Assembly: GCA_017882785.1 (NCBI GenBank)
Contig: JADGOV010000004.1
Span: forward strand, 1,521 to 65,520
Direction of reading: 5' to 3'
Length of the DNA: 64,000 nucleotides
From: Frankiaceae bacterium
Lineage (GTDB): Bacteria; Actinomycetota; Actinomycetes; JADGOV01
The translations under genes were made by a program, and so were the position numbers. Below, one piece after another: positions 14,848-28,552 of the stretch. Each line of letters starts with the position of its first letter. The first letter of the stretch is position 1. A model generated the notes under the pieces. The model was given only the letters and a program-made list of their open reading frames with translations, did not search any database and was not told where the DNA came from.

Positions 14848-17800
14848 ATGTTCCGCCCGCTGCCGGCCCGTGTCGACCTGCCGGCGCTGGAACGGGAGGT
14901 CCTCACCCGCTGGCGAGAGTGCGGTGTGTTCGCCCGCTCGCTGGCCCAGACCGCCGACGGACCGCTTTGGGTCTTCTACGAGGGCCCGCCGACGGCGAAT
15001 GGCCGGCCGGGGACGCACCACACCGAGGCCCGCGCCGTCAAGGACATCTACTGCCGGTTCAAGACCATGCAGGGGTTCTCCGTGCCCCGCCGGGCCGGCT
15101 GGGACTGCCACGGCCTGCCCGTGGAACTGGCCGTGGAGAAGGAACTCGGGTTCACCGGCAAGGGTGACATCGAGGCGTACGGCGTGGCCGAGTTCAACGC
15201 CCGCTGCCGGGAGTCCGTGCTGCGCCACGTCGCCGAGTTCGAGCAGCTGACCGAACGGCTGGGCTACTGGTGCGACATGGCGGATGCCTACCGCACGATG
15301 GACCCGCAGTACATCGAGTCGGTCTGGTGGTCGTTGAAGGTCATCTTCGACAAGGGTCTGCTCGTCCAGGATCATCGAGTGTCGCCGTACTGCCCGCGCT
15401 GCGGCACCGGCCTCTCCGACCATGAGGTGGCCCAGGGCTACCTCATGGTCACCGACCCCAGCGTCTACGTACGCTTCCCGGTGACCAGCGGCGAGTGGGC
15501 CGGGCGGGCGTCCCTGCTGGTCTGGACGAGCACCCCCTGGACATTGATCTCCAACACCGCGGTCGCGGTGCACCCGGACGTGACCTACGTCGCCGCCCGG
15601 GTCACCGGACCGGGTGCTGAGACCCTCATCGTGGCCGAGCCGCTGCGTGCCAGGGTCCTCGGCGAGGACGCCGAGGTGCTCGCCACGATCCCCGGGCGGG
15701 AGCTGGAGCACGTCGGCTACGAGCGGCCGTTCGACCTGCTCGCGATCCCGGACGCGCACTACGTCGGCCTGGCCGACTACGTGACCGTGGAGGACGGGAC
15801 CGGCCTGGTCCACCAGTCCCCAGCGTTCGGCGCGGACGACCTCGAGGTGGCCCGCCGCTACGGGCTGCCGGTGGTCAACCCGGTCGGGCTCGACGGACGC
15901 TTCGCCGCCGACCTGCCACTGGTCGGCGGTCAGTTCTTCAAGTCCGCCGACCCCCACATCGTTGCCGACCTCCGCGCCCGGGGCCTGCTCTACCGCTACG
16001 CCGACTACAGCCACAGCTATCCGCACTGCTGGCGCTGCGACACACCGCTGATCTACTACGCGCTGCCGTCGTGGTACATCCGCACCACCGCGATCCAGGA
16101 TGCGCTGCTGCGGGAGAACGCCGCCACCGACTGGCACCCGCCGCGGGTGAAGACCGGGCGCTACGGCGACTGGCTGGCGAACAACGTCGACTGGGCACTG
16201 TCCCGCAACCGCTACTGGGGGACGCCGCTGCCGATCTGGCGCTGCGCGGCGGAGGGCGACCCGCACCTCACCGTGGTGGGTTCCCTTGCCGAGCTCTCCA
16301 CGCTGGCCGGTGCCGATCTCAGCGGTCTCGACCCGCACCGCCCGTACCTCGACGAGGTCACCTTCCCCTGCCCCGAGTGCGGCTTGCCGGCCAGCCGCGT
16401 GCCGGAAGTGATCGACGCCTGGTACGACTCCGGCGCGATGCCGTTCGCCCAGTGGGGTGCGCCGCACCGCCGCGAGGAGGAGTTCCGCGCCGCCTATCCC
16501 GCCCAGTTCATCGCCGAGGCCATCGACCAGACCCGCGGCTGGTTCTACACGCTGATGGCAGTCGGCACGCTGGTATTCGACCGGTCCTCCTACGAGACAG
16601 TGTTGTGCCTGGGCATCATCCTCGACGAGCACGGTCGCAAGATGAGCAAGCACCTGGGCAACGTGCTCGACCCGTTCTCCCTCTTCGACCAGCACGGTGC
16701 GGACGCGGTGCGCTGGTTGATGCTCTGCGGCGGGTCACCCTGGGCGGACCGGCGGGTCGGCAACGAGCCGCTTGCCGAGGTGGTGCGCAAGGTACTGCTC
16801 ACCTACTGGAACACCGTGTCGTTCTTTACCCTCTACGCCAGCGTCAACGACTGGACCCCGCAGAGCGCGCCCCCACCGGCCGTGGCGGAACGGCCGGCTC
16901 TGGACCGGTGGGCGCTGTCGGAGCTGCACGAGACCGTGCGCGTCGTGACCGATGCCCTGGACGGCTTCGACTCAGCCGGTGCCGGTCGTCGCCTGAGCAG
17001 ATTCATCGACGACCTGTCGAACTGGTACGTCCGCCGCTCCCGCCGGCGGTTCTGGGTCGGTCAGCCCGCAGCGCTGGGCACATTGCACGAGTGTCTGGAG
17101 GTGCTCACCCGCCTGCTGGCGCCGTTCGTCCCATTCGTCACCGACGAGGTGCACCAGCGCATCGTCGGCGACGTCCGGCCCGACCTCCCGGACTCGGTGC
17201 ACCTGCGGGAATGGCCAGTCGGTGACCCCGCCCTGGTCGATGAGCCGCTGGCCGAACAGATGGGGCTCGTACGGCGGCTCGTGGAACTGGGACGCGGGGC
17301 CCGGGCGTCGTCCAAGCTGCCCACCCGCCAGCCGCTGGGCCGGGCCTTGGTCGTGGCCCACGGGTGGGACGGGCTGGCGGCCGACTTGCGGGCGGAGGTG
17401 CTCGAGGAGCTGAACGTCACAGCCGTCGAGGTGGGCAGGGTTGAGGTGGACATCTCGGTCAAGCCCAACTTCCGCGAACTCGGGCGCCGTTTCGGGCCAC
17501 GGACCAAGGCCGTCGCCGCGGCGGTTGCCCAACTGGTCCCGGCGCAGGTAGCCGCAGCCCTGGCCGAGACCGGATCGGTGGGTGTGTGGGTCGGAGGCGC
17601 CGACGAGCCGCCGGAGAGGATCAGCGCGGCCGAACTGCAGGTCACCGAGACGCCACGGGAGGGCTGGGCGGCGGCCACGGCCGCCGGTGAGACCGTGGCC
17701 CTGGACCTCACTCTGACCGCTGAGCTGCGCCGCGCCGGCCGGCTACGGGAGGTTGTCCGGTTGGTGCAGGAGGCCCGGAAGACGACCGACCTGGAGGTGG

Positions 17801-17991
17801 CCGACCGGATCGAGTTGTGGTGGCGGGCCGTCGACCCGGTCACCGCGCAGGCGCTGCGGGAGGGCCGCGAGCACCTGGCCGGTGAGGTGCTCGCAGTCAC
17901 CGTCACCGAGGGCGAACCGCTGGCGGCAATCGTGCCCCACGCCGCGGAGGACCTCGGGCTGACATTCTGGCTGCGCGTCGTGGGCGGTTGA
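14848..17991 (+). CDS. ileS: Isoleucyl-tRNA synthetase.
   Basis: GPPTANGRPGTHH (HIGH-class) and KMSKHLGN motifs, with zinc-finger cysteines. The ATG at 14848 is preceded by GAGGGGGG. The track ORF starts at an upstream GTG, 14824. Confidence 0.95.
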   Translation: MFRPLPARVDLPALEREVLTRWRECGVFARSLAQTADGPLWVFYEGPPTANGRPGTHHTEARAVKDIYCRFKTMQGFSVPRRAGWDCHGLPVELAVEKELGFTGKGDIEAYGVAEFNARCRESVLRHVAEFEQLTERLGYWCDMADAYRTMDPQYIESVWWSLKVIFDKGLLVQDHRVSPYCPRCGTGLSDHEVAQGYLMVTDPSVYVRFPVTSGEWAGRASLLVWTSTPWTLISNTAVAVHPDVTYVAARVTGPGAETLIVAEPLRARVLGEDAEVLATIPGRELEHVGYERPFDLLAIPDAHYVGLADYVTVEDGTGLVHQSPAFGADDLEVARRYGLPVVNPVGLDGRFAADLPLVGGQFFKSADPHIVADLRARGLLYRYADYSHSYPHCWRCDTPLIYYALPSWYIRTTAIQDALLRENAATDWHPPRVKTGRYGDWLANNVDWALSRNRYWGTPLPIWRCAAEGDPHLTVVGSLAELSTLAGADLSGLDPHRPYLDEVTFPCPECGLPASRVPEVIDAWYDSGAMPFAQWGAPHRREEEFRAAYPAQFIAEAIDQTRGWFYTLMAVGTLVFDRSSYETVLCLGIILDEHGRKMSKHLGNVLDPFSLFDQHGADAVRWLMLCGGSPWADRRVGNEPLAEVVRKVLLTYWNTVSFFTLYASVNDWTPQSAPPPAVAERPALDRWALSELHETVRVVTDALDGFDSAGAGRRLSRFIDDLSNWYVRRSRRRFWVGQPAALGTLHECLEVLTRLLAPFVPFVTDEVHQRIVGDVRPDLPDSVHLREWPVGDPALVDEPLAEQMGLVRRLVELGRGARASSKLPTRQPLGRALVVAHGWDGLAADLRAEVLEELNVTAVEVGRVEVDISVKPNFRELGRRFGPRTKAVAAAVAQLVPAQVAAALAETGSVGVWVGGADEPPERISAAELQVTETPREGWAAATAAGETVALDLTLTAELRRAGRLREVVRLVQEARKTTDLEVADRIELWWRAVDPVTAQALREGREHLAGEVLAVTVTEGEPLAAIVPHAAEDLGLTFWLRVVGG

Positions 17992-18156
17992 GCGGCCCCG
18001 CGATCAGGACAGGTTCAGGACAGCCACATCCGGCGCACGTAGACGAAGATGACGACGAGGAGGACGGCCAGGACGACCTTCCACAGCACGCGGCGTTCCG
18101 AGCGGCGATCCCGCGCCAGTTCCTCGGCCGGTGGATCCCGAGGCGGCGGTAGGTCC

Positions 18157-19704
18157 TCACCCACTGCGGAGGTCGACCTGCCCGGTCTTCTCGGTCTTGT
18201 CCCAGCGCATCTCCGCATTGCGCATTTCCGCGATGTAGGCGGTGAGGGTGACCATGCAGAGCAACGGTCCGTAGCCGCCGATGTAGATCAGTAACGGGGA
18301 CAGCCGGCGGAACCTGGTCGACTCCAGTCGCTTGGCCAGCCACGCCACTGCCATGCAGCCGGCCACCCAAGCGAAGCTGAAGATAGTCACCGCCGTACGG
18401 GTCGGGCCGCGCCAGGACGGCCCTATCCACGACATGAAGTGGGCCCCGAGCCAGTCCGCCGCGACCGGGACGCAGGTCAGCAGGATGATCGACAATGAGA
18501 TCGCTCCAGGAAACAGCAGCGCCTCCCGCCAGACCCGCCGGCCGGTCGGCGGATCCAGGGCAAGGGTCAGCGAGGTGATGAAGAGCCAGCTGACCGCATT
18601 CACGATCCACAGCGCGTGGAAGACCTGCCAGGCGCGGCCGACGTCGAGGACGTACAGCAGGAGCAGGCTGAGGCAGGAGGCGATCATCAATGCCGGCAGG
18701 AGCAGCAGGCAGAACCAGAGGATGCCGAAGCCGATGCTGCCCAGCCGATGGTCCGGGGAGGGGCGGAACCACACGCTGCGGAAGCGCCGGGTGACCTGGA
18801 TGTTGCCGCGGGCCCATCGCAACCGCTGCTTGCAGAGCCCACTCAGTGTCGCCGGCTCCTCGGCCCACACGACGGCGTGCGGCTCGAAGACCACCCGTCG
18901 CCCACCGAGCTGGGTGAGGAATGTCGTGACGGTGTCCTCGGCAAGGGTGCTGGGGTCGATCCGGCCGCCGACCGCGATCAGGTTCTCCCGGGTCAGCAGC
19001 TGGGCGCCGCCGGCGAGACAGGCCATCGCGCCGAGAACGTTCTGTGCGCGGCGCCCGCCGGCCTGCGCCGCGGCGTACTCGAAGGCGACGAACCGGGTGA
19101 GGTAGTTCCCCGGCCGGGAGCCTTCCTTGATGTAGGCGGTGACGGCGCCTACCCGCGGATCGGCGAGGTGTCGGGTCATCCGGCGCAGCGACGACGCCTC
19201 GTAGACGACGTCGGCGTCCATGATCAAGAGGGCCTGCATCCAGTCGTCGGCGAGGATCTCGCGCAGGCCGTGGTTGAGGGTGTGCGCCTTGCCTTCCCCA
19301 CCTTTCTCCCGACGTACGTGCACCACCTGCCCATGGTGCCGGCGGGCCAGCGCCTGCACCACCTGCGGCGTGTCGTCGGTGCTGGCGTCGTCGACGACGT
19401 AGACCCGCAGTTGGTCGCCGGGGTAGTCCAGCGACACCAGCCGCTCGATGCTGCAGTCCAGGACCGCGCCTTCGTTCCAGGCTGGCACGAGGATCGCGAC
19501 CCGCGGGCTGGACGGTCCGACGGCGTCGTAGTGGTCGCGCCAGCGGTGCGCGCCGACGAGTAGGAACTGGTAGGCCCCCGCCGCCAGCGGCGCCGCACCG
19601 AGCACCACCAGCACCACGAGCACCCACCAGCCGGACTGCCAAACCGCCTGCCAGGCCGTAGCCCAAGAAGTCGCGGACAATCCATACGGCATCTTGCCGG
19701 CCAT
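18157..19704 (-). CDS. Membrane GT2 processive (synthase-type) glycosyltransferase, PgaC/IcaA/NodC/cellulose-synthase-like.
   Basis: ATG at 19704. An N-terminal TM helix is followed by the GT2 catalytic domain (VYVVDDAS…DAD…QRLRWARG, the QxxRW motif) and C-terminal multi-TM helices. Confidence 0.8.
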   Translation of the reverse strand: MAGKMPYGLSATSWATAWQAVWQSGWWVLVVLVVLGAAPLAAGAYQFLLVGAHRWRDHYDAVGPSSPRVAILVPAWNEGAVLDCSIERLVSLDYPGDQLRVYVVDDASTDDTPQVVQALARRHHGQVVHVRREKGGEGKAHTLNHGLREILADDWMQALLIMDADVVYEASSLRRMTRHLADPRVGAVTAYIKEGSRPGNYLTRFVAFEYAAAQAGGRRAQNVLGAMACLAGGAQLLTRENLIAVGGRIDPSTLAEDTVTTFLTQLGGRRVVFEPHAVVWAEEPATLSGLCKQRLRWARGNIQVTRRFRSVWFRPSPDHRLGSIGFGILWFCLLLLPALMIASCLSLLLLYVLDVGRAWQVFHALWIVNAVSWLFITSLTLALDPPTGRRVWREALLFPGAISLSIILLTCVPVAADWLGAHFMSWIGPSWRGPTRTAVTIFSFAWVAGCMAVAWLAKRLESTRFRRLSPLLIYIGGYGPLLCMVTLTAYIAEMRNAEMRWDKTEKTGQVDLRSG

Positions 19705-19709
19705 GGCGG

Positions 19710-20465
19710 CTAGGCCGCTGCCGCGAGGTCGTCCACCACAGCCCGGACGTAGGACCAGCGCGCCACCTCGGCGGGGGCGTGGGCGTCGCTGCCCGCGGTG
19801 AGCAGGACGCCTTGTCGGGCGAGCATCCGCACGACCCGGCTGGAGGGGCAACGCCACTTCTCGTTGATCTCTACTGCGGACGCGGTACGCCGGCAGGTGG
19901 CGGCGAGGCGGTTGAGGTGCTCCTTGCCCACCGCCGTCTCCGTGAGCCCGCACTTGGGCAGCACGCTGAACAGGTGAGCGATGATCGCTGGGAGCGGTGA
20001 GGATTCCAGTGCCCGCACCGTCGCCTCGATCAGCGCGTCCACAACCGCCGCCGCCGGAAGCTCACCCCGGTCGATGGCGGACCGCACGTCGGCCGGATGC
20101 AGCGGGCCGTCGAGAGCAGGCACCCGGTGGTCGGCGACGAGCACGTAGTCGACGCCGGCCAGCGCGTGGGGCAGGTCAAGTCGCCCCCGGGTGTCCAGGA
20201 TCTTCGCCTCGACCCCGCACCGGACCGGCAGGGCGGCGAGACGGCGGGCTGAGCGCACGGCGCGCACGTACTCCGGCACCCAGTCGGTGTCCGACCGGAC
20301 GTGGTCGCTCACCCCCATTCCGCTGAGGTCGAGACGCTCGGCCTGAGCGATCATGTCGGCAAGCGGGGCGTGCCCGTCGCTGGTTGTCGTGTGCATGTGC
20401 AGGTCCACGGCCAACGCCGGCGGGCTCAGGCCGCGGCTCGCCGTAGGGTCGAGACCGGGGGTCAC
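19710..20465 (-). CDS. PHP-family metal-dependent phosphoesterase (CpsB/HisK-like).
   Basis: DLHMHTTTSDGHAPLADM is the N-terminal PHP motif, and downstream His/Asp metal ligands are present. 251 aa. Confidence 0.65.
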   Translation of the reverse strand: MTPGLDPTASRGLSPPALAVDLHMHTTTSDGHAPLADMIAQAERLDLSGMGVSDHVRSDTDWVPEYVRAVRSARRLAALPVRCGVEAKILDTRGRLDLPHALAGVDYVLVADHRVPALDGPLHPADVRSAIDRGELPAAAVVDALIEATVRALESSPLPAIIAHLFSVLPKCGLTETAVGKEHLNRLAATCRRTASAVEINEKWRCPSSRVVRMLARQGVLLTAGSDAHAPAEVARWSYVRAVVDDLAAAA

Positions 20466-21505
20466 GCCGGCACCGCGACCCGCTGCTCGCCGCGCCTGAG
20501 CAGGTCATCGACCTCGCTCACCGGCACGTAGCGTTCCGCCCAGTAGCGCACGACGGCGATGTCCCGATACGCCAGCGACGTCGGCAGCGGCCGGCCCAGC
20601 AGGTCGTGCAGGGCCCATGCGGGCAGGTCAACACCGGCCTGCACGGTAAGAGGCATTGTCCCGGGAAAACGCGGGTTCACTTCCAGCAGTGCAGGACGCC
20701 CGGCCGAGTCCGCACGACACTGCACGTTGGCCACCCAGCGCAGGCCGACCGCTCTGGCCACCCGCTTGCCGAAGTCCTCCAGGGCCGGATCGCTGACCGT
20801 CCGTGCGGCGACGGCGATCCCGGAGTCCACCTTGTCCCGCCGCCGCGGCACCACGGCCACGACGCGGCCCGGGCCGGCGAGCACGTCGAGGGACCACTCC
20901 GCCCCCGGCAGCAACTCCTGGACGATCATCGAGCCGTCCCGCGGGAGGTCGGCCAGGCCGGCTGGGGCGGTGACCTGCGCTACCCCGCGCCCGCCCGCCC
21001 CCCGCCGAGGCTTGACCACGACGGCCCCGGTGAGCCCCGCGGCCGCGAGCGCCCCGTCATCGAGCCCATGATCGAGGACTCGGGTGTGCGGCACGCGCAC
21101 TGCGCCGGCACAGACCCGGACGAGCGTCGCCTTGTCCAGGGTTCGGGCCAGCGTGGCGGGTGACTCGACGAGGACCCGGACCCCGTGCTGGGCGAAATCC
21201 GCGACCCGGCGACTTATCGGTGCCAGCTCGACGTCGACGGTGGGCACCAGCACGTCGACCTTGTGCCGCACGCACGCCGCGAGCAGGGCCGTGGTGAACT
21301 CGGGAGCGTCACCACGCGGCAGCAGCTCTCGGCGAGTCGGCGGAACCAGATACAGCCCCGCCGCGTACGGATCGAGGTCGGCCGCGATGAGGTCCACCCG
21401 GTCTTCGAGGTCGCGCAGGAAGGCCACCGCTGCGGCACCGCCGGCACCGGTGACCAGCACCCGCAGCCGGCGGCCCTGCGGGCCGCTGAGATCAGGTGAG
21501 GGCAC
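20462..21505 (-). CDS. ATP-grasp domain protein (carboxylate-amine ligase family). The start may be the internal GTG at 21460.
   Basis: Shows a pre-ATP-grasp region and the ATP-grasp fold (…VVKPRRGAGGRGV…IVQELLPG…LEVNPR…), resembling CPSase/RimK-like ligases. Confidence 0.65.
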   Translation of the reverse strand: MPSPDLSGPQGRRLRVLVTGAGGAAAVAFLRDLEDRVDLIAADLDPYAAGLYLVPPTRRELLPRGDAPEFTTALLAACVRHKVDVLVPTVDVELAPISRRVADFAQHGVRVLVESPATLARTLDKATLVRVCAGAVRVPHTRVLDHGLDDGALAAAGLTGAVVVKPRRGAGGRGVAQVTAPAGLADLPRDGSMIVQELLPGAEWSLDVLAGPGRVVAVVPRRRDKVDSGIAVAARTVSDPALEDFGKRVARAVGLRWVANVQCRADSAGRPALLEVNPRFPGTMPLTVQAGVDLPAWALHDLLGRPLPTSLAYRDIAVVRYWAERYVPVSEVDDLLRRGEQRVAVPA

Positions 21506-22982
21506 GAGTGCCGTCCTTCATGTCGCCGTCCTTCATCTGAGGAGCCACGTCGAAGGCCGCGGAGGCCGGGGTGCTCTCCCGCAGCACCTCCAGTGGCTCG
21601 GCGTAGGTCGTGCCGGTGGCCGTGCCGTGCACGCGGGCCTGGGCGATGAGCAGATCCTCGGCCAGGTAGTCGCGTTGGCCGATCTGGGACGCGAAGGCCG
21701 CCAGCAGAGCGATCTTTCGGGACATCACCGAGCCCACGTCGACGAAGCGGGTTGGGCGGAAGTCCACGGTCGCCGAAGGCGAACGGTAGCCGTACACCCG
21801 GCCGACCCGTCGGGTGGCGATCATCGCCGCCGAGTGCACCGCCCGGTGGTCCTGGTGGTGATCGTGGCTGGAGTGCACGTAGACGATGGTCGGGCGTACC
21901 GCAGCCACGACCTCCTCCACCACGTCGATCGTGGGCCGGCCCTCCGGGATCGCCGTGTCCGGCAGCTCGCCGAGGTAGAGGCGAGCGTCCAACAGCGCGG
22001 CGGCGCGCACCGACTCCTCCTGGCGCCGCGCCGGGTCGCCGCCGGTGGCCCCCGCGCTCATCGTCAGCACCGTGACCTCGTCGGCCTGCGCTGCGTGCAC
22101 GAGCAGCGCGCCGCCCGCGCCGATCTCCACATCATCCGGATGCGCACCGATGGCGAGCACCCGTTCCCGTCTGTCCTGGAAACGGGAAATCGCCCGCTGC
22201 ACAGCCTCGACCAACGCGGCGGGACGAATGGGCTTGGCCACGAAGTCGGCCGCGCCGGCGCGCATCGCCTCCACCGCGGTGGACATTCGGGCGTCGCCGG
22301 TCACGAGCACGGTCGGCAGCCCGGGCCGGGCTGCCTGCACGGCGGCGGCGAGTTCGAGGCCGTTGCGGCCGCTCATGTGGATGTCGGACACCACCGCATC
22401 ACAGACGCTCCCATCCCCGAGGGCGAGCAGCGCCTCTTCCGCGCTGGCCAGTGCGGTCACGGAATACCCACCCCGCTGGGTGAGCACCAACTCGAGCAGA
22501 CGCCGCAGATCAGGGTCGTCGTCGGCCACGATCACGCGGCCCCGCCGTTCCCGAGCCAGCCGGACGAGGTCGGCCGCGGCCACCACCGGCTCGCCGGAAC
22601 TCTCCCTGTGACGGCGCAGGAGGGCCTCGATCCGGGCCAGCAACTCATTCGCCCGGTAGGGCTTGGTCAGGTAGTCGTCGGCGCCGGACCGCAGGCCGCG
22701 GACGACGTCGCTGGGCCCGCCCTCCGCGGTGAGCATGATCACCGGCACGTCGCTGTGTCGGCGCACCCGCTGCAGCACCTGCCAGCCGTCCAGCTCCGGC
22801 AACCCGACATCGAGCACCACCAGATCCGGCTGCTCCTCCAGGACCGCCTGCAGCCCGGAGCGCCCGTCCTGCCGCGAGAACGTCTGGTAGCCATGCTCAG
22901 TGAGAAGCAACTCCAGCGCGCGGCGGATGTCGGCGTCGTCCTCGATGAGTACCACCCGCGCAGGTGACTGTCCGCCCGCCAT
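21492..22982 (-). CDS. Dual-receiver response regulator fused to a PIG-L/LmbE-family N-acetylglucosaminyl deacetylase domain (REC-REC-LmbE).
   Basis: REC1 is VVLIEDD…VVLDVGLPELDG…LTKPY. REC2 is VIVADDD…VVSDIHMSG…VAKPI. The C-terminal domain carries AIGAHPDDVEIGAGG and HSSHDHHQDH zinc-deacetylase motifs. The ATG at 22982 overlaps the histidine-kinase stop (ATGA). Confidence 0.75.
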   Translation of the reverse strand: MAGGQSPARVVLIEDDADIRRALELLLTEHGYQTFSRQDGRSGLQAVLEEQPDLVVLDVGLPELDGWQVLQRVRRHSDVPVIMLTAEGGPSDVVRGLRSGADDYLTKPYRANELLARIEALLRRHRESSGEPVVAAADLVRLARERRGRVIVADDDPDLRRLLELVLTQRGGYSVTALASAEEALLALGDGSVCDAVVSDIHMSGRNGLELAAAVQAARPGLPTVLVTGDARMSTAVEAMRAGAADFVAKPIRPAALVEAVQRAISRFQDRRERVLAIGAHPDDVEIGAGGALLVHAAQADEVTVLTMSAGATGGDPARRQEESVRAAALLDARLYLGELPDTAIPEGRPTIDVVEEVVAAVRPTIVYVHSSHDHHQDHRAVHSAAMIATRRVGRVYGYRSPSATVDFRPTRFVDVGSVMSRKIALLAAFASQIGQRDYLAEDLLIAQARVHGTATGTTYAEPLEVLRESTPASAAFDVAPQMKDGDMKDGTRALT

Positions 22983-24247
22983 CACCGGGCCTGCCACAAC
23001 GGAATCCGGATGCCGATGGTCGTGCCGACTCCGAGCTCGCTGGACATGGTGATCTGGCCACCGTGCCGGGACACGATCACCCGGGAGATCAGCAGTCCCA
23101 TGCCGGTACCGGGGATGCCCTCGGTCCGGGTGTTCGAGGCCCGGAAGACGTCGTGGAAGATCCGGTCCTGCTCCGCAACGGGGATGCCGATGCCGGTGTC
23201 CGCCACGTCGAGGGCCCATTGGGCACCCTCGCGCCTGGACCGCAGGCTCACCCGTCCCCCGGCAGGGGTGTACTTCACCGCGTTACCGACCACGTTGTCG
23301 AGAACCTGGGCCATTCGCTCCCGATCGACCTCGCTGCGAAGGCCGTCCTCGACCTCGTCCCCGACAAGGTCAAGGCCCTTCCGCTCGCTATAGGCGGCGC
23401 GGTGCCGCAACGCGTCGCGGGCCAGCTGACCTGTATCCACACTGGCCAGCCGCAGCGGCTCGTCCTCCCATTCCAGGGAGGCGATGAGCCGCAGATCCTC
23501 GACCAACCGGATGAGCCGCCGGGCGTTGCGCTCGATGACCTCGACGTATTCGGCCACAGCCGGGTCGGAGGTGCCGTCCAGGGACTCCGCCAGCAGTTCG
23601 GCGAAGCTCACCACCGAGGTGAGCGGCGTGCGCAGTTCGTGGGAGATCATCCGGGCCAGACCGGGCTCGCCGGGCTCGCCACGGCCGGCCGGCTCGTCCA
23701 AGCCGTAGATCACCAAACCCTGCACGGCCGGCTCGTCCCGCAGGTCGCGCACCACGGTGCGCAGGCTGCGGTAGCCGCCGTCGCGGTGGCGCACCCGCAG
23801 CGTGAACGGGGCGCTCGCGGCCGGCGGATCGCTGAGCTGACGTACCAAGCCGGCGCGGTCGTCCGGATGAACGAGCTCAAGCACTTCCACCGGAGGCTGA
23901 TCCTGCGGATAACTCAGCGTCTGCATCCCTTGCGAGGACAGCCATTGCCAGTTTCCGTCGGCGTCCAGCAGTCCGACCAACGCGGGGATCTGGTCGAGAA
24001 CGACCGCGCGCAGCCGATCGCTCGCGTCACCCGCCCCGATCTGCTCGGCCAGCGGGTGGCCACCGTCGGCCGCCAGAGCCACGGACGACCTCGGTGGTCC
24101 GGGGACGCCCGAGGGTGCCGAATCCGCCCCCGCCGGCGAGGACTGGCGCGGCACCGTCCGAGACGACGGAACATCCGAGGTCGGCTGCAGAGCCTGCAGA
24201 GCGCTCGGGTCACGGCTCGGGTCGGGGGTCACGTTTGGCACGCGCAC
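22982..24247 (-). CDS. Cytoplasmic PAS-domain sensor histidine kinase.
   Basis: A PAS region is followed by the HisKA H-box MISHELRTPLTSV and HATPase_c (N, G1 DTGIGI, G2 GTGMGL). No TM segments are present. It is translationally coupled to the downstream response regulator. Confidence 0.8.
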   Translation of the reverse strand: MRVPNVTPDPSRDPSALQALQPTSDVPSSRTVPRQSSPAGADSAPSGVPGPPRSSVALAADGGHPLAEQIGAGDASDRLRAVVLDQIPALVGLLDADGNWQWLSSQGMQTLSYPQDQPPVEVLELVHPDDRAGLVRQLSDPPAASAPFTLRVRHRDGGYRSLRTVVRDLRDEPAVQGLVIYGLDEPAGRGEPGEPGLARMISHELRTPLTSVVSFAELLAESLDGTSDPAVAEYVEVIERNARRLIRLVEDLRLIASLEWEDEPLRLASVDTGQLARDALRHRAAYSERKGLDLVGDEVEDGLRSEVDRERMAQVLDNVVGNAVKYTPAGGRVSLRSRREGAQWALDVADTGIGIPVAEQDRIFHDVFRASNTRTEGIPGTGMGLLISRVIVSRHGGQITMSSELGVGTTIGIRIPLWQAR

Positions 24248-24273
24248 GGCCTGAGCCGGCGTGCCTGCCTTGG

Positions 24274-24354
24274 CCCTGCCATGACAGTGTCTTCGGCCCG
24301 CGTCGGGCCGGCCTGAAGCGAAGCGGGCTCGCCAGTGAGCCGCTGCCTACGAGG
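24274..24354. repeat. Copy A of a conserved ~80-nt element (core CAGTGTCTTCGGCCCGCGYCGGRCCGGCCTGAAGC).
   Basis: It shares a 36-nt core (2 mismatches) and a similar 3' tail with copy B at 27617..27703. It contains a GGCCCG-cgt-CGGGCC hairpin. It lies 27 nt upstream of the histidine-kinase start (minus) and about 217 nt upstream of the GT4 gene (plus). Confidence 0.5.
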
Positions 24355-24570
24355 AGAAAGTCGCGAGACCTGCTGCCCGTGAACGGCCATTGCGGCCCGG
24401 CGGCAAGCTGAGAAGCTGCCGATGAACGGCTGCTATCGTGGGGTCCTGGAATATGATTAGCAGATTCGCACAATGAGGTTCGGATCTTTTCTGGACGTCT
24501 CCCCCCAGCCCGGGCAGCTATCCATTACAGCCCTGCTGGCGGGACATTGGTTCCGGGAGACGTGGTGGGA

Positions 24571-26121
24571 ATGCGCATTCTGATATTCCATGGCTACCTC
24601 CTGCGGGGCACAGGAAGTAATATCTACAATACGGAGCTGGCCCGGTGGCTGGTCGATCTCGGCCACGAGGTACATCTGTTGTGCCAGGAAAGGCACGCGG
24701 CGGAATTCGATTTCGTGGATGCCGTCGGCCGCTGGCGTCACGGGCGGCTGGACGTCGAGGTCACGCGCCGTCCGGTCCGCTGTACTGCTTACCTCCCGGA
24801 CATCGGCGGCCTCCTGCCGGTCTATGTGGCCGATCACTACGAGGGATTCGACGCGCGCCCCTTTCCGGAGCTGACAGACGGTCAGATCGAACATTACATC
24901 GCGGCAAACACCGCCGCCGTTCGCGACGTCGTCGCGGCGGTCGAGCCGGACGGGGCCCTCGCGAACCACCTGGTGATGGGCCCGGTGATCCTGGCCCGCG
25001 CGCTGGCTGGCCGCGTCCCCTATGCGATCAAGATCCACGGTTCGGCCCTCGAGTACACCGTCCGGCCCAACGTCGGACGATTCGGCTCCTACGCCCGCGA
25101 GGGCCTGGCGGGAGCAACCGGGGTCCTCGTCGGCTCACGCCATACCGCCGAGAGCCTGTGGGAGGTCGTCGGTCTGCCGGACCTTCCGGCTCGCACCCGG
25201 CTCCTCCCGCCAGGTGTCGACGTCCGCAGGTTCCACCCCCGCCCGCCCGGGGAGGCCAAGGATGGGTTGCGTGCGCTGGCAGCACGCGTGGAGGCGGACC
25301 CGCCCACCTGGGGCGGGGAAGCCGACGCGGCGCAAGCCATCAGGGCAGCCGACCCCACCCGGGATCGGATTGTCAGCTATGTCGGGAAACTCATCGCCTC
25401 GAAGGGCGTGGACCTGCTCATTGCGGCCTGGCCACTGGTCATCGACCGCGCTCCTGACGCCCGCCTCATGATCGCCGGCTTTGGCGCCTATCGTCACGCG
25501 CTGCTCCAACTCGCCCGCGCCCTGGGCGAGGGCGATCTGGCGGCCGCGCGGGTCATCGCCAGCCGCGGACGGGAACTGGAAGGAGGGCCTCCGGGGGAGC
25601 TTCGCTACCTGGCCGCGTTCCTCGATGGCCTCACCGGCGCGGAGCAAGAACGCTACCTGAACGCCTCCCCGGCCGCTATGCGGCGTATCCATTTCACCGG
25701 GCGGATCGAACACGATGATGTCTCCGAACTCATGTGCGCGTCCCAGGCGGTGGTCGTCCCGAGTACATTCCCGGAGGCTTTCGGCATGGTCCTCGCAGAA
25801 GCCGCGTGTTGCGGGGCGATGCCGCTGTCGGCAGCCCACTCGGGGCTCGCGGAGGTGACTGAGGTGCTAGCGCCCGCATTGCGTAAGGACCTGCGCCCTC
25901 AGCTGTCCTTCCAGCTGGGCCCCGGCGCCGTGCGGGAGATCGCCGATAAGCTGGCTTGTTGGCTGTCGTTCACTGCGAACACACCGAATGCCTGGAGACA
26001 GGCCCGCGAGGACCTGGCCGATCTTGCCTGCGCCCAGTTTGGCTGGCAGGAAGTGGCCAAGGGTGTCGCGGCGGCCGCCCGGGGCCAGCTCGGCGGGCTG
26101 CCGCCCGTGCCCGTGGACTGA
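24571..26121 (+). CDS. GT4-family (GT-B) glycosyltransferase.
   Basis: ATG at 24571. MRILIFHGYLLRGTGSNIYNTELARWLVDLGHEVHLL opens the N-domain; the C-domain contains EAFGMVLAEAACCGAMPL (E-x7-E region). 516 aa. Confidence 0.8.
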   Translation: MRILIFHGYLLRGTGSNIYNTELARWLVDLGHEVHLLCQERHAAEFDFVDAVGRWRHGRLDVEVTRRPVRCTAYLPDIGGLLPVYVADHYEGFDARPFPELTDGQIEHYIAANTAAVRDVVAAVEPDGALANHLVMGPVILARALAGRVPYAIKIHGSALEYTVRPNVGRFGSYAREGLAGATGVLVGSRHTAESLWEVVGLPDLPARTRLLPPGVDVRRFHPRPPGEAKDGLRALAARVEADPPTWGGEADAAQAIRAADPTRDRIVSYVGKLIASKGVDLLIAAWPLVIDRAPDARLMIAGFGAYRHALLQLARALGEGDLAAARVIASRGRELEGGPPGELRYLAAFLDGLTGAEQERYLNASPAAMRRIHFTGRIEHDDVSELMCASQAVVVPSTFPEAFGMVLAEAACCGAMPLSAAHSGLAEVTEVLAPALRKDLRPQLSFQLGPGAVREIADKLACWLSFTANTPNAWRQAREDLADLACAQFGWQEVAKGVAAAARGQLGGLPPVPVD

Positions 26122-27426
26122 TGAGGGTTCGCGCACGAATGACTCTCGTTTGGCTGGTACAAGCGATCGGCCGTGCGGACCGGAAATCAGGAAGAAGGGG
26201 TCAGTCTTCCCAGCGGCGAGGATGTACCAGGCGGTCGCCCCGGTGTGCAGCGACGCGTAGTAGGAGCCGCCGCCGCAGTCGCTGAGCCCGTTCCTCGAGG
26301 CCGATATGATGCCGAGGCCGTCGCTGTTCGGCCCGTGCGCCTGGGCATGGTAGATGTCCGACAAGTACTCTGCTGCCCTTGCGCCGTCCCCGGGACCGCC
26401 GCGCAGTTCAAGCGCGTCAGCGAGGTGCGCGGTTCCCTCGAACCAGACGCCCGTACGGTCTCCACCGCAGAAGCTCACGCCGCTGAAACCGCCGGCGGAG
26501 ACGGCGAGGTTCCGCACATCCCAACCGACCGATGCGGCGTAGCCGGGATCTCGCAAGGCGAGATATGACCAGCTGTTGACATCTTCGGGAGTCACACTGT
26601 CGTTGGGGGTCTTCCCGTCGCTGGTTGTTCCGATGTAGAACCGGCCTTGCCGTGCGTCCCACACCCCCGCGACGAAGCGTCTCGCCCACGCCGCCCTGAC
26701 CGACCAGGCCGGGTCGCGCGTCTTCATGGCAAGCAGGCTGAAGAAGGCGTAGAGGTCGATGTTGTGCTCGGCGGACTTCCATTCGATCTTCTGGCCGTTC
26801 GCCGACTCGCCGCCCGTGTACCCGCCCGGCCCCCGCGTGTCGTGGCAGTGGGCCTGGACCCAGTTCCCGATCGCTTCCGCTCCCGTGAGGTAAACCCTCC
26901 GGCCGGTGGCCGCGTAGAGCTGGACAAGGGCCTGGCCGGCCCACGCCATGGCTCCTACGTGGCTGGCCGCGTCGGTGACCGTCACATCGCTCGGGCTGCG
27001 CAGTGGGGCTGGCGAGTACGCGGCGCGAACGCGGCCGTCATGCTGCGGATCGTGCGCCTGCACATACAGCAGCCCGTTGCCGATGACCTCTGCCCTGGAC
27101 CGTCCGCCCGGGGTGCCTGCCGCCAGGTACGCATCGACGAGGAGCGCGTCGTCGTAGGTCTCCGAGGCCGTGAAGTGCTGCTGTCCGAGAACGCCCCCGG
27201 TGAAGCTCTGCACGAGGCGTGGGGTCGAGCCTGCGGCGTACTTGTCCATCATCTGGCTGAGGAACGAATAAGCATCCGCGACGCTGCTCTGCAGCTGCCT
27301 GGCCGGAACCTGCGCGGGCGGGCCCGCGGCGCCTCGATCCCCGGCTGGGGCGCAGCCCACGATGCCGGCCGTGGTTGCGGCCAGCACGGCTGCCACGGCA
27401 GCACCCGCCAGGTCGACCCGACTCAT
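25867..27426 (-). CDS. Secreted lipoprotein, possibly an (alpha/alpha)6-type glycoside-hydrolase-like protein.
   Basis: ATG at 27426 with GGGAGAG upstream. Signal peptide plus lipobox MSRVDLAGAAVAAVLAATTAGIVGC. The body is rich in W/Y/D/G. The last ~85 codons overlap the convergent GT4 3' end and look non-protein-like, so a frameshift or mis-called end is possible. Confidence 0.5.
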   Translation of the reverse strand: MSRVDLAGAAVAAVLAATTAGIVGCAPAGDRGAAGPPAQVPARQLQSSVADAYSFLSQMMDKYAAGSTPRLVQSFTGGVLGQQHFTASETYDDALLVDAYLAAGTPGGRSRAEVIGNGLLYVQAHDPQHDGRVRAAYSPAPLRSPSDVTVTDAASHVGAMAWAGQALVQLYAATGRRVYLTGAEAIGNWVQAHCHDTRGPGGYTGGESANGQKIEWKSAEHNIDLYAFFSLLAMKTRDPAWSVRAAWARRFVAGVWDARQGRFYIGTTSDGKTPNDSVTPEDVNSWSYLALRDPGYAASVGWDVRNLAVSAGGFSGVSFCGGDRTGVWFEGTAHLADALELRGGPGDGARAAEYLSDIYHAQAHGPNSDGLGIISASRNGLSDCGGGSYYASLHTGATAWYILAAGKTDPFFLISGPHGRSLVPAKRESFVREPSSVHGHGRQPAELAPGGRRDTLGHFLPAKLGAGKIGQVLAGLSPGIRCVRSERQPTSQLIGDLPHGAGAQLEGQLRAQVLTQCGR

Positions 27427-27616
27427 CGCCACTCTCCCGCCGTGGTCGTGGCGGTGAAGGTGGCCGGCGTCGATCTCACGCTTCTGGGGAGGCGCGGTGA
27501 CGCCTGCCTCCGCCGCCAGCCGCCGAGGCCCGTGGGACGGTTGCTGTCCCCTTGGCGTCCCTGGTGAGAGCCGGGGCGGTCGTCCTCGGCCGTGACGGTC
27601 AGGCTCAGCGCAACGC

Positions 27617-27703
27617 CCCCTGCCTCGGCCCCGCCAGTGTCTTCGGCCCGCGCCGGACCGGCCTGAAGCAGGGGGCCTGCCAGCGAGCTGCTACGAACCG
27701 AGG
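27617..27703. repeat. Copy B of the conserved ~80-nt element.
   Basis: CCCCTGCC…CAGTGTCTTCGGCCCGCGCCGGACCGGCCTGAAGC…CTGCCAGCGAGCTGCTACGAACCGAGG. It lies immediately downstream of the yggT stop and about 190 nt upstream of the lipoprotein gene start, both on the minus strand. Confidence 0.5.
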
Positions 27704-27981
27704 TCGGCGACCACTGTCCGGAGGATGTTCACCAGGATGAACAGCACGAGGAAGGCCAGATCCAGCGCGACCCCGCCGATCCGCAGGGGTGGAATGATCC
27801 GTCGCAGCAGTCGCAGCGGTGGATCTGTGATCGAGTAGGTGATCTCCAAGACGATCACCATCACCCCGGTCGGCCGATAGCTGCGGGAGAGTTGGAAGAC
27901 CCACTCCATGACGAGCCGGAAGATCAGCAGGAGCAGGAAGATCAGCAGAGCGTCGCTCAACAGGCGAGCCACCAGTGCCAC
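27691..27981 (-). CDS. YggT-family small membrane protein (cell-division cluster).
   Basis: GTG at 27981 with GGGAGG upstream. VALVARLLSDALLIFLLLLIFRLVMEWV… is typical of YggT/YlmG. It lies downstream of sepF. Confidence 0.6.
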   Translation of the reverse strand: MALVARLLSDALLIFLLLLIFRLVMEWVFQLSRSYRPTGVMVIVLEITYSITDPPLRLLRRIIPPLRIGGVALDLAFLVLFILVNILRTVVADLGS

Positions 27982-28045
27982 GAAAGTACGGCCTCCCTGC
28001 AGACCCGCAAATGGTGGCGGGGAACGCCACCTGCCTTCCTCCAGG

Positions 28046-28552
28046 CTAGCTCTGGTTGAAGAAGCCACCTTCGGCGATGCGCTGCTTGTCCTCGGCGGTG
28101 ATCTGAACGTTGGCCGGCGACAGGAGGAAGACCTTGGCTGTCACCCGCTCGATGCTGCCGCGCAAGCCGAAGATCAACCCCGCGGCGAAATCGACGAGGC
28201 GCTTCGCGTCGTTATCGTCCATCTCGGAGAGGTTCATGATGACCGGCGTGCCTTCGCGGAAATGCTCACCGATGGTCCGCGCCTCGTTGTAGGTGCGGGG
28301 GTGCAGTGTGGTGATCCGCTGAGGCGGGCGCTCCACCTTGGCGCCAGGCTCGACGGTGCGGACCGCGGTCGCCACTCCCGCGGGACGGGAATCCTCCAGG
28401 CGGCGCACGCTGCCAGCCCGAGGGGCGGGGTCCTCAGCGGCACGCCGAGGGTGTTCGCCGCTCTCGGCCTCGTCGAGGTCGACATCGTACCGATCGTCGT
28501 CATCCTCGACCAGGCCGAGGTAGACCGCCATCTTTCGCATCGCGCCGGGCAT
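28046..28552 (-). CDS. sepF: Cell division protein SepF.
   Basis: M(P)[16 protein letters not shown]… at the N-terminus and the conserved C-terminal SepF domain (…[26 protein letters not shown]…). Confidence 0.85.

Follow-up and report, generated by a model that had tools for sequence, protein, structure and literature searches.

In a stretch of 64,000 nucleotides (nt) from a Frankiaceae bacterium (contig JADGOV010000004.1; hereafter the window, 71% GC), a non-coding element of ~80 nt occurs twice in the same orientation: copy B directly follows the stop codon of yggT, at the end of the cell-division (dcw) gene cluster, and copy A lies between a GT4 glycosyltransferase gene and a divergent operon that starts with a histidine kinase gene. 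To all appearances, the element has arisen by ordinary local duplication and does not represent a new family of regulatory RNA. The duplication, its limits and its orientation are observed outright, as are its restriction to one species and the lack of a wider family in the collections searched. The best-supported account, which we hold tentatively, is that of a species-restricted local duplication with a core hairpin that may mark the boundaries of transcripts. A first-pass annotation of the window had thought a shared cis-regulatory site, or a leader of structured RNA, plausible, with recombination scars as a further option; the element is confined to two loci of one species, and the footprint of a duplication therefore fits better than a conserved leader. 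The features concerned are as follows:

24264-24349, minus strand: repeat copy A, defined by local alignment and a covariance model match, in the intergenic region from which the GT4 gene and the kinase operon diverge.
24285-24319, minus strand: core of copy A, a minus-strand hairpin of -15.5 kcal/mol.
27619-27697, minus strand: repeat copy B, defined by local alignment and a covariance model match, beginning at the yggT stop codon (TAG, 27691-27693).
27635-27669, minus strand: core of copy B, with the same minus-strand fold as copy A, at -13.6 kcal/mol.

The 35-nt core, CAGTGTCTTCGGCCCGCG(T/C)CGG(G/A)CCGGCCTGAAGC on the plus strand, is found exactly twice, in the same orientation and with 33 of its 35 positions identical. 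There are no further matches in the window at three or fewer mismatches, and none of 100 dinucleotide shuffles yielded any match; the first-pass description of a duplicated ~80-nt element in one orientation is, thus, borne out. Local gapped alignment pairs 81 nt of copy A (24264-24344) with 74 nt of copy B (27619-27692), separated by indels of 2 and 5 nt, which preclude a frame shared by the two copies, and a peptide-coding reading of the repeat is therefore rejected. Just 5' of the aligned repeat on the minus strand, both copies carry the hexamer TCGTAG, in register: in copy B (27691-27696) it contains the yggT stop codon, and in copy A it lies at 24347-24352. Similarity past the limits of the repeat is not significant, and the A/B pair (family D1) is the sole outstanding repeat within 17500-28500. 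Identity is higher in the core (33/35; 94%) than in the flanks (32/46; 70%), with a post hoc Fisher p of 0.01, which becomes 0.055 when an indel counts only once. Two further readings of the sequence around the copies were also discarded. Copy A is not convincing as a decayed remnant of the 3' coding end of yggT, as its translation is unpersuasive, extension of the DNA alignment gives p = 0.18 and only TCGTAG is held in common; a promoter or leader common to the ~190-nt spacers finds no support, their best local alignment being not significant (equalled in score by 23 of 300 shuffles) and out of register.

The searches for further copies returned only these two loci in one species. Rfam 15 gave no match at gathering thresholds across the whole window, and relaxation to E<=10 over 24000-28100 gave only an irrelevant mir-657 match (25144-25224). 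A scan of one genome per species, covering 185,579 species, with the degenerate pattern GTCTTCGGCC-N11-GGCCTGAAG produced 78 matches, none of which was the element; these were unrelated and lay mostly in coding sequence, for example, in a conserved Rhizobiaceae gene. With a tighter pattern, eight matches were found in JGI metagenome contigs, of which three were real and corresponded to copy A (twice) and copy B of the same organism. No match to the element was found in viral contigs or in phage and plasmid collections, and a covariance model built from the A/B copies detected no further copy in either the window or 14 related loci (~260 kb). The literature on the gene cluster and on Frankia-type intergenic repeats likewise offered nothing relevant. 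Similarity confined to one genome as a local duplication is, therefore, what was found, and the idea that the element is conserved as a cis-regulatory site or RNA leader fell on this point and on its lack of conservation in relatives; the stem, with no two-sided change, gives it no support.

Within the species, the arrangement is stable. Some 24 contigs, recovered via YggT from ENA, JGI and Logan assemblies that are independent of one another, match the window at 99.3-99.9% identity, retain its gene order and carry both copies essentially unaltered. Copy A is invariant in 14 contigs, and copy B varies at four singleton sites, none of them in the core; the resulting counts of segregating sites (0/86 for A and 4/79 for B, against a background of 1-3%) are without the power to show constraint. 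In contig L125, two close substitutions in copy B (27684 and 27689; L125 1327-1340) restore the copy A sequence AGCGGCTCACTGG, which suggests gene conversion between the copies. Additionally, three contigs of independent assemblies, L121, L107 and L120, stop at copy A or within it (24257, 24317 and 24323); this could reflect either a structural variant or a drop in coverage over the GC hairpin.

The minus strand is that of yggT, of the lipoprotein gene that follows copy B and of the kinase operon. On this strand, RNA of the copy A core folds as CUUC.GGCC.GC-loop-GC.GGCCGAAG (-15.5 kcal/mol), and the minimum free energy structure is the same in both cores (-15.5 kcal/mol for A and -13.6 kcal/mol for B). 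Of the two positions at which the cores differ, one lies in the loop, and at the other a C>U change turns a G-C pair into G.U, such that pairing is kept on the minus strand only; on the plus strand, the folds of A and B are unlike, with a C.A mismatch in B. This compatibility of the core changes with the predicted minus-strand fold is the only, and weak, hint of a strand-specific RNA constraint. Across the three distinct sequences available, all 30 of 30 cells in the pair count are paired, with nine of the ten pairs invariant and the tenth showing the one-sided change from G-C to G.U. A conserved extended RNA fold was rejected, as the outer helices predicted for B do not form in A; likewise, the 12-bp outer inverted repeat around the core of copy B has no counterpart in copy A. 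The minus-strand sequence 3' of the stem reads GAAGACACUG. Consensus scans found no promoter, and reading of the sequence found no TANNNT-type -10 motif between either copy and its gene. The hairpin of copy B starts 22 nt past the stop codon of yggT, the last gene of a long operon, and copy B is the only one of the two that is placed as would be expected of a terminator without a U tract.

The two copies belong to an accessory island of 9.7 kb (17992-27690) at the junction of yggT and ileS. The end of the dcw cluster within the window comprises ftsQ, ftsZ, ylmD, ylmE, sepF and yggT, all on the minus strand. From yggT, the order is copy B, the lipoprotein gene and the GT4 gene (convergent), copy A, the operon running from the kinase to a GT2 glycosyltransferase gene, and finally ileS on the plus strand. 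The genes around the copies are as follows:

27691-27981, minus strand: yggT (Pfam YGGT; 100% match to P0241), 96 aa as called, last gene of the dcw/ftsZ-sepF operon.
25867-27426, minus strand: lipoprotein gene, lipobox IVGC, an open reading frame (ORF) of 519 aa whose tail overlaps the 3' end of the GT4 gene.
24571-26121, plus strand: GT4 glycosyltransferase gene (Pfam), N-terminus MRILIFHGY, convergent with the lipoprotein gene and divergent from the kinase operon.
24450-24570, plus strand: 5' region of the GT4 gene, an AT-richer patch with TATGAT; copy A lies outside it.
22982-24082, minus strand: PAS histidine kinase gene, first gene of the minus-strand operon.
18157-23219, minus strand: remainder of the operon (REC-REC-PIG-L, Ter-type ATP-grasp, PHP and PgaC-like GT2).

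The copies, therefore, bracket a GT4/lipoprotein segment of 3.3 kb, each standing upstream of a minus-strand transcription unit, and the geometry first described is broadly right; it needs amendment in three respects. Copy A is upstream of the kinase operon, but at ~180 nt from the most likely kinase start (GTG 24082, giving 366 aa with the ribosome-binding site GAGG, and the choice of gene callers in most contigs, at least ten of them independent) it is not immediately so. Copy B is upstream of the lipoprotein gene, but it runs from the yggT stop codon to a point 190 nt short of the ATG at 27426. Lastly, the GT4 gene is indeed one of the bracketed pair, but it lies on the plus strand, so that copy A occupies a divergent intergenic region. 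From the 3' end of the core to the downstream start codon, the distances are 203 and 208 nt for the two copies.

Several variants affect the neighbouring genes. At 519 aa, the lipoprotein ORF exceeds the ~413-420 aa seen in more than 100 homologues; the additional ~100 codons (25867-26170, minus strand) are antisense to the end of the GT4 gene (overlap 25867-26121), as if the normal stop codon had been lost when the two genes were joined. A deletion polymorphism of 104 bp (27396-27499) in contigs L092 and L125 removes the ribosome-binding site, ATG and first codons of the lipoprotein gene, and many contigs terminate between 27110 and 27570. The kinase gene of contig L091 has an indel in its N-terminal part (23699-23725) and, with it, a shorter gene call of 353 aa.

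The homologues of YggT place the window near metagenome-assembled genomes of the Frankiaceae/Sporichthyaceae type. In the nearest other relatives, YggT, SepF and IleS are about 77-90% identical, and yggT faces ileS. Neither the island nor the element is present in these relatives, and the element was not found downstream of yggT in any of the contigs L111-L116. The intervening sequence varies from only 7 nt in L111 (10285-10292) to other cargo of up to 2.4 kb, namely, a GNAT gene with a toxin-antitoxin pair in L113-L115 (L113 3530-5895) and a DUF6233-like gene in L116 (10285-11156). Because this cargo differs from relative to relative, we regard the yggT-ileS junction as an insertion hot spot in this lineage, at least on comparison of these sequences; by the same comparison, the 9.7-kb island appears specific to this species among the available data. 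In Streptomyces and Mycobacterium, divIVA follows yggT in the gene order; it does so in neither the window nor the relatives L111, L113 and L116.

More distant contigs provide homologues of the island genes. The lipoprotein belongs to a family of more than 1000 homologues, which often adjoin ATP-grasp/PHP/GT2/PIG-L operons (as in contigs L001 and L008), and the element was not found in the L001 and L008 clusters or upstream of seven lipoprotein homologues. The GT4 and lipoprotein genes encode products 79-82% identical to their L001 counterparts (82% for GT4), compared with 44-62% for the operon proteins, and the lipoprotein is also 78% identical to its counterpart in L008. The 5' region of the GT4 gene matches L001 (2417-2560) from ~24450 to the ATG, the match ending ~100 nt short of copy A; this promoter/untranslated region, with its TATGAT patch, is kept in a distant contig that has other neighbouring genes. 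The closest lipoprotein homologues are 82-84% identical, and in their upstream regions only 20 nt around the ribosome-binding site agree with the window. Neither protein was of use in finding orthologous loci: the lipoprotein family is widespread, not syntenic and yielded no locus with the element, and the kinase gave one near-identical match, the next being only 50% identical. A recurring and uncharacterized gene set was also apparent in several actinobacterial contigs, among them the window (18157-24082), L001 (1-7800) and L008 (5960-11766): it consists of a REC-REC-PIG-L deacetylase fusion, a Ter-type ATP-grasp protein, a PHP phosphoesterase, a PgaC/IcaA-like GT2, a GT4 and a lipoprotein without a Pfam domain, and looks like a phosphorelay-controlled system for exopolysaccharide modification.

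We infer from these data both a scenario for the assembly of the island and a terminator or insulator role for the core. The non-coding segment directly after the yggT stop codon would have been duplicated locally, in this lineage only, during the build-up of the exopolysaccharide-like island from two modules at the variable yggT-ileS junction, and the copies would have exchanged sequence occasionally thereafter. Assembly from modules with duplication of the junction would fit the position of copy B at the yggT stop codon, the TCGTAG retained in copy A, the L001 identities, the lost lipoprotein stop codon and the exchange seen in L125; this evidence agrees with the proposed order of events but is no proof of it. 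A local regulatory or terminator role of the core hairpin is possible, and our best functional guess is a terminator without a U tract, or a transcript-end hairpin, on the minus strand. Copy B would end the dcw transcript, and copy A would halt minus-strand transcripts that run on past the lipoprotein gene before they reached the kinase operon; the overlap with the GT4 gene leaves the lipoprotein gene no space for a terminator of its own. Each module would thus be insulated and have its own promoter.

A number of observations weigh against this account. None of the ten base pairs shows a two-sided (compensatory) change, there being only three distinct sequences, and with nine pairs invariant the compensatory changes sought as support for an RNA structure did not materialize. 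Nor is the hairpin exceptional: among random 33-mers from this genome, 12.5% fold at -13.6 kcal/mol or below and 5.5% at -15.5 kcal/mol or below, and the 96-nt segments, with minus-strand z-scores of -1.0 to -1.3, are no more stable than shuffles. No T/U tract follows the hairpin on either strand, and a terminator scan returned no sites in 23900-24700 or 27300-27800. Copy A has no co-directional gene end nearby, and to act as a terminator it would have to meet antisense read-through extending 1.5 kb across the GT4 gene. Simple serial integration predicts a third copy at the ileS end of the island, where none was found, and the unequal L001 identities could arise from differing evolutionary rates, not differing origins, of the proteins. 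Finally, the contrast between core and flanks comes from a post hoc test with p = 0.01-0.055.

Of the alternatives, that which survives best, while still somewhat unlikely, is that the copies are the neutral footprint of module-joining recombination and have no present function, with the identity of the cores due to gene conversion or chance. The restriction to two copies in one species, the yggT stop-codon hexamer retained in copy A, the likely A-to-B conversion in L125 and the unremarkable stability of the hairpin would all be expected of such a footprint, and no constraint is detectable in the 0/86 and 4/79 segregating sites, numbers that lack power. Less readily accommodated are the uneven identity (94% in the core, 70% in the flanks), the location of both core differences at positions tolerated by the minus-strand hairpin, and the fact that the L125 conversion tract lies in the flank, not in the core.

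We consider it unlikely that the lipoprotein gene and the kinase operon, as two units of one functional module, are co-regulated through the element as a shared operator or as an RNA leader or attenuator in the 5' untranslated regions. The copies do face their downstream genes in the same way, at similar distances from core to start codon (203 and 208 nt); co-regulation is plausible in principle, given that the lipoprotein family adjoins ATP-grasp/PHP/GT2/PIG-L operons in L001 and L008; the core is better conserved than its flanks and has changed in ways compatible with a minus-strand RNA hairpin; and, with no TANNNT-type -10 motif downstream of the copies, the promoters may lie upstream of them. 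However, the element is missing from L001, L008 and the upstream regions of the closest lipoprotein homologues, has no Rfam match even at E<=10, and was met with nowhere beyond this species in the genome and metagenome scans. Moreover, there are no covarying pairs, A and B share no structure outside the core, and domain scans of the island ORFs reveal no DNA-binding regulator encoded at the locus. The palindrome of the core is all-GC and of 6-3-6 form, which is atypical for actinobacterial operators. A narrower variant of the same idea is improbable: a young lineage-specific RNA attenuator or leader without Rfam relatives, the minus-strand hairpin of which would gate transcription that runs on from dcw to the lipoprotein gene and, from a promoter farther upstream, to the kinase operon.

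More doubtful still is the proposal that the copies are the attL and attR sites of a small mobilizable GT4/lipoprotein cassette, the 35-nt core being the crossover and the recombinase being encoded elsewhere. Direct repeats around a 3.3-kb two-gene segment at an insertion hot spot, with inverted-repeat arms within the core, would suit such sites, as would the independent contigs that end at copy A (24257, 24317 and 24323). Yet, Pfam and NCBIfam scans of all island ORFs identified no integrase, transposase or recombinase, the likeness reaches into both flanks where attL and attR normally have only the core in common, and neither an empty site (yggT-element-kinase) nor a circular junction was seen among 20 distinct contig contexts. 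There is also no match in the phage, plasmid or viral collections, and elsewhere the GT4 and lipoprotein genes regularly accompany this type of operon and are not free cassettes.

It is scarcely credible that the copies are two members, brought into the window by chance, of a dispersed repeat family of the REP/BIME or MITE kind: they are GC-rich, imperfectly palindromic and intergenic, and the copy B core sits inside a 12-bp outer inverted repeat, but that repeat is missing from copy A, no target-site duplications or terminal inverted repeats are common to the two, all three genuine matches of the metagenome scan fall at the two known loci, and neither the 64-kb window nor ~260 kb of related loci holds another copy.

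As it stands, the duplication matters little beyond documenting how an accessory island was pieced together at the end of the dcw cluster and providing a concrete pair of hairpins as candidate transcript boundaries. If the core does control read-through, it would be a newly born cis-element duplicated together with the assembly of modules, and would link regulation of the uncharacterized REC-REC-PIG-L/PgaC-like polysaccharide system to transcription of the cell-division genes; were it an attenuator, an exopolysaccharide-like envelope module would be coupled to dcw transcription.

The element can be compared with several known kinds of system. Like the actinobacterial leaders in Rfam (ydaO/cyclic-di-AMP, 6C and Actino-pnp), it stands upstream of genes, is ~80 nt long and contains a hairpin; unlike them, it has no Rfam match at gathering thresholds or E<=10, no cross-species conservation and no covariation. 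With REP/BIME and MITE repeats, it shares a short, GC-rich, imperfectly palindromic and intergenic character, whereas its two copies occupy one locus and belong to no dispersed family in the collections searched. The direct repeats that flank genomic islets (attL/attR, or the duplication junctions of homology-facilitated insertion at hot spots) resemble it in forming a same-orientation pair, here around a 3.3-kb gene pair at a lineage-variable site with one copy abutting the stop codon of a conserved gene; they differ in that the locus has no recombinase, the likeness extends past the crossover core with indels, and no empty-site or excised form is seen. The lack of a T/U tract sets the element apart from canonical L-shaped terminators, but U-tract-less ('I-shaped') intrinsic terminators have been described for high-GC Actinobacteria such as mycobacteria. 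Although copy A is without an adjoining gene end, equally stable hairpins abound in this genome and the role here is only a predicted one, the two cores have in common with I-shaped terminators a GC-rich stem-loop of ~10 bp and -14 to -15 kcal/mol without a U tail, and in copy B it lies 22 nt from the stop codon that closes the operon.

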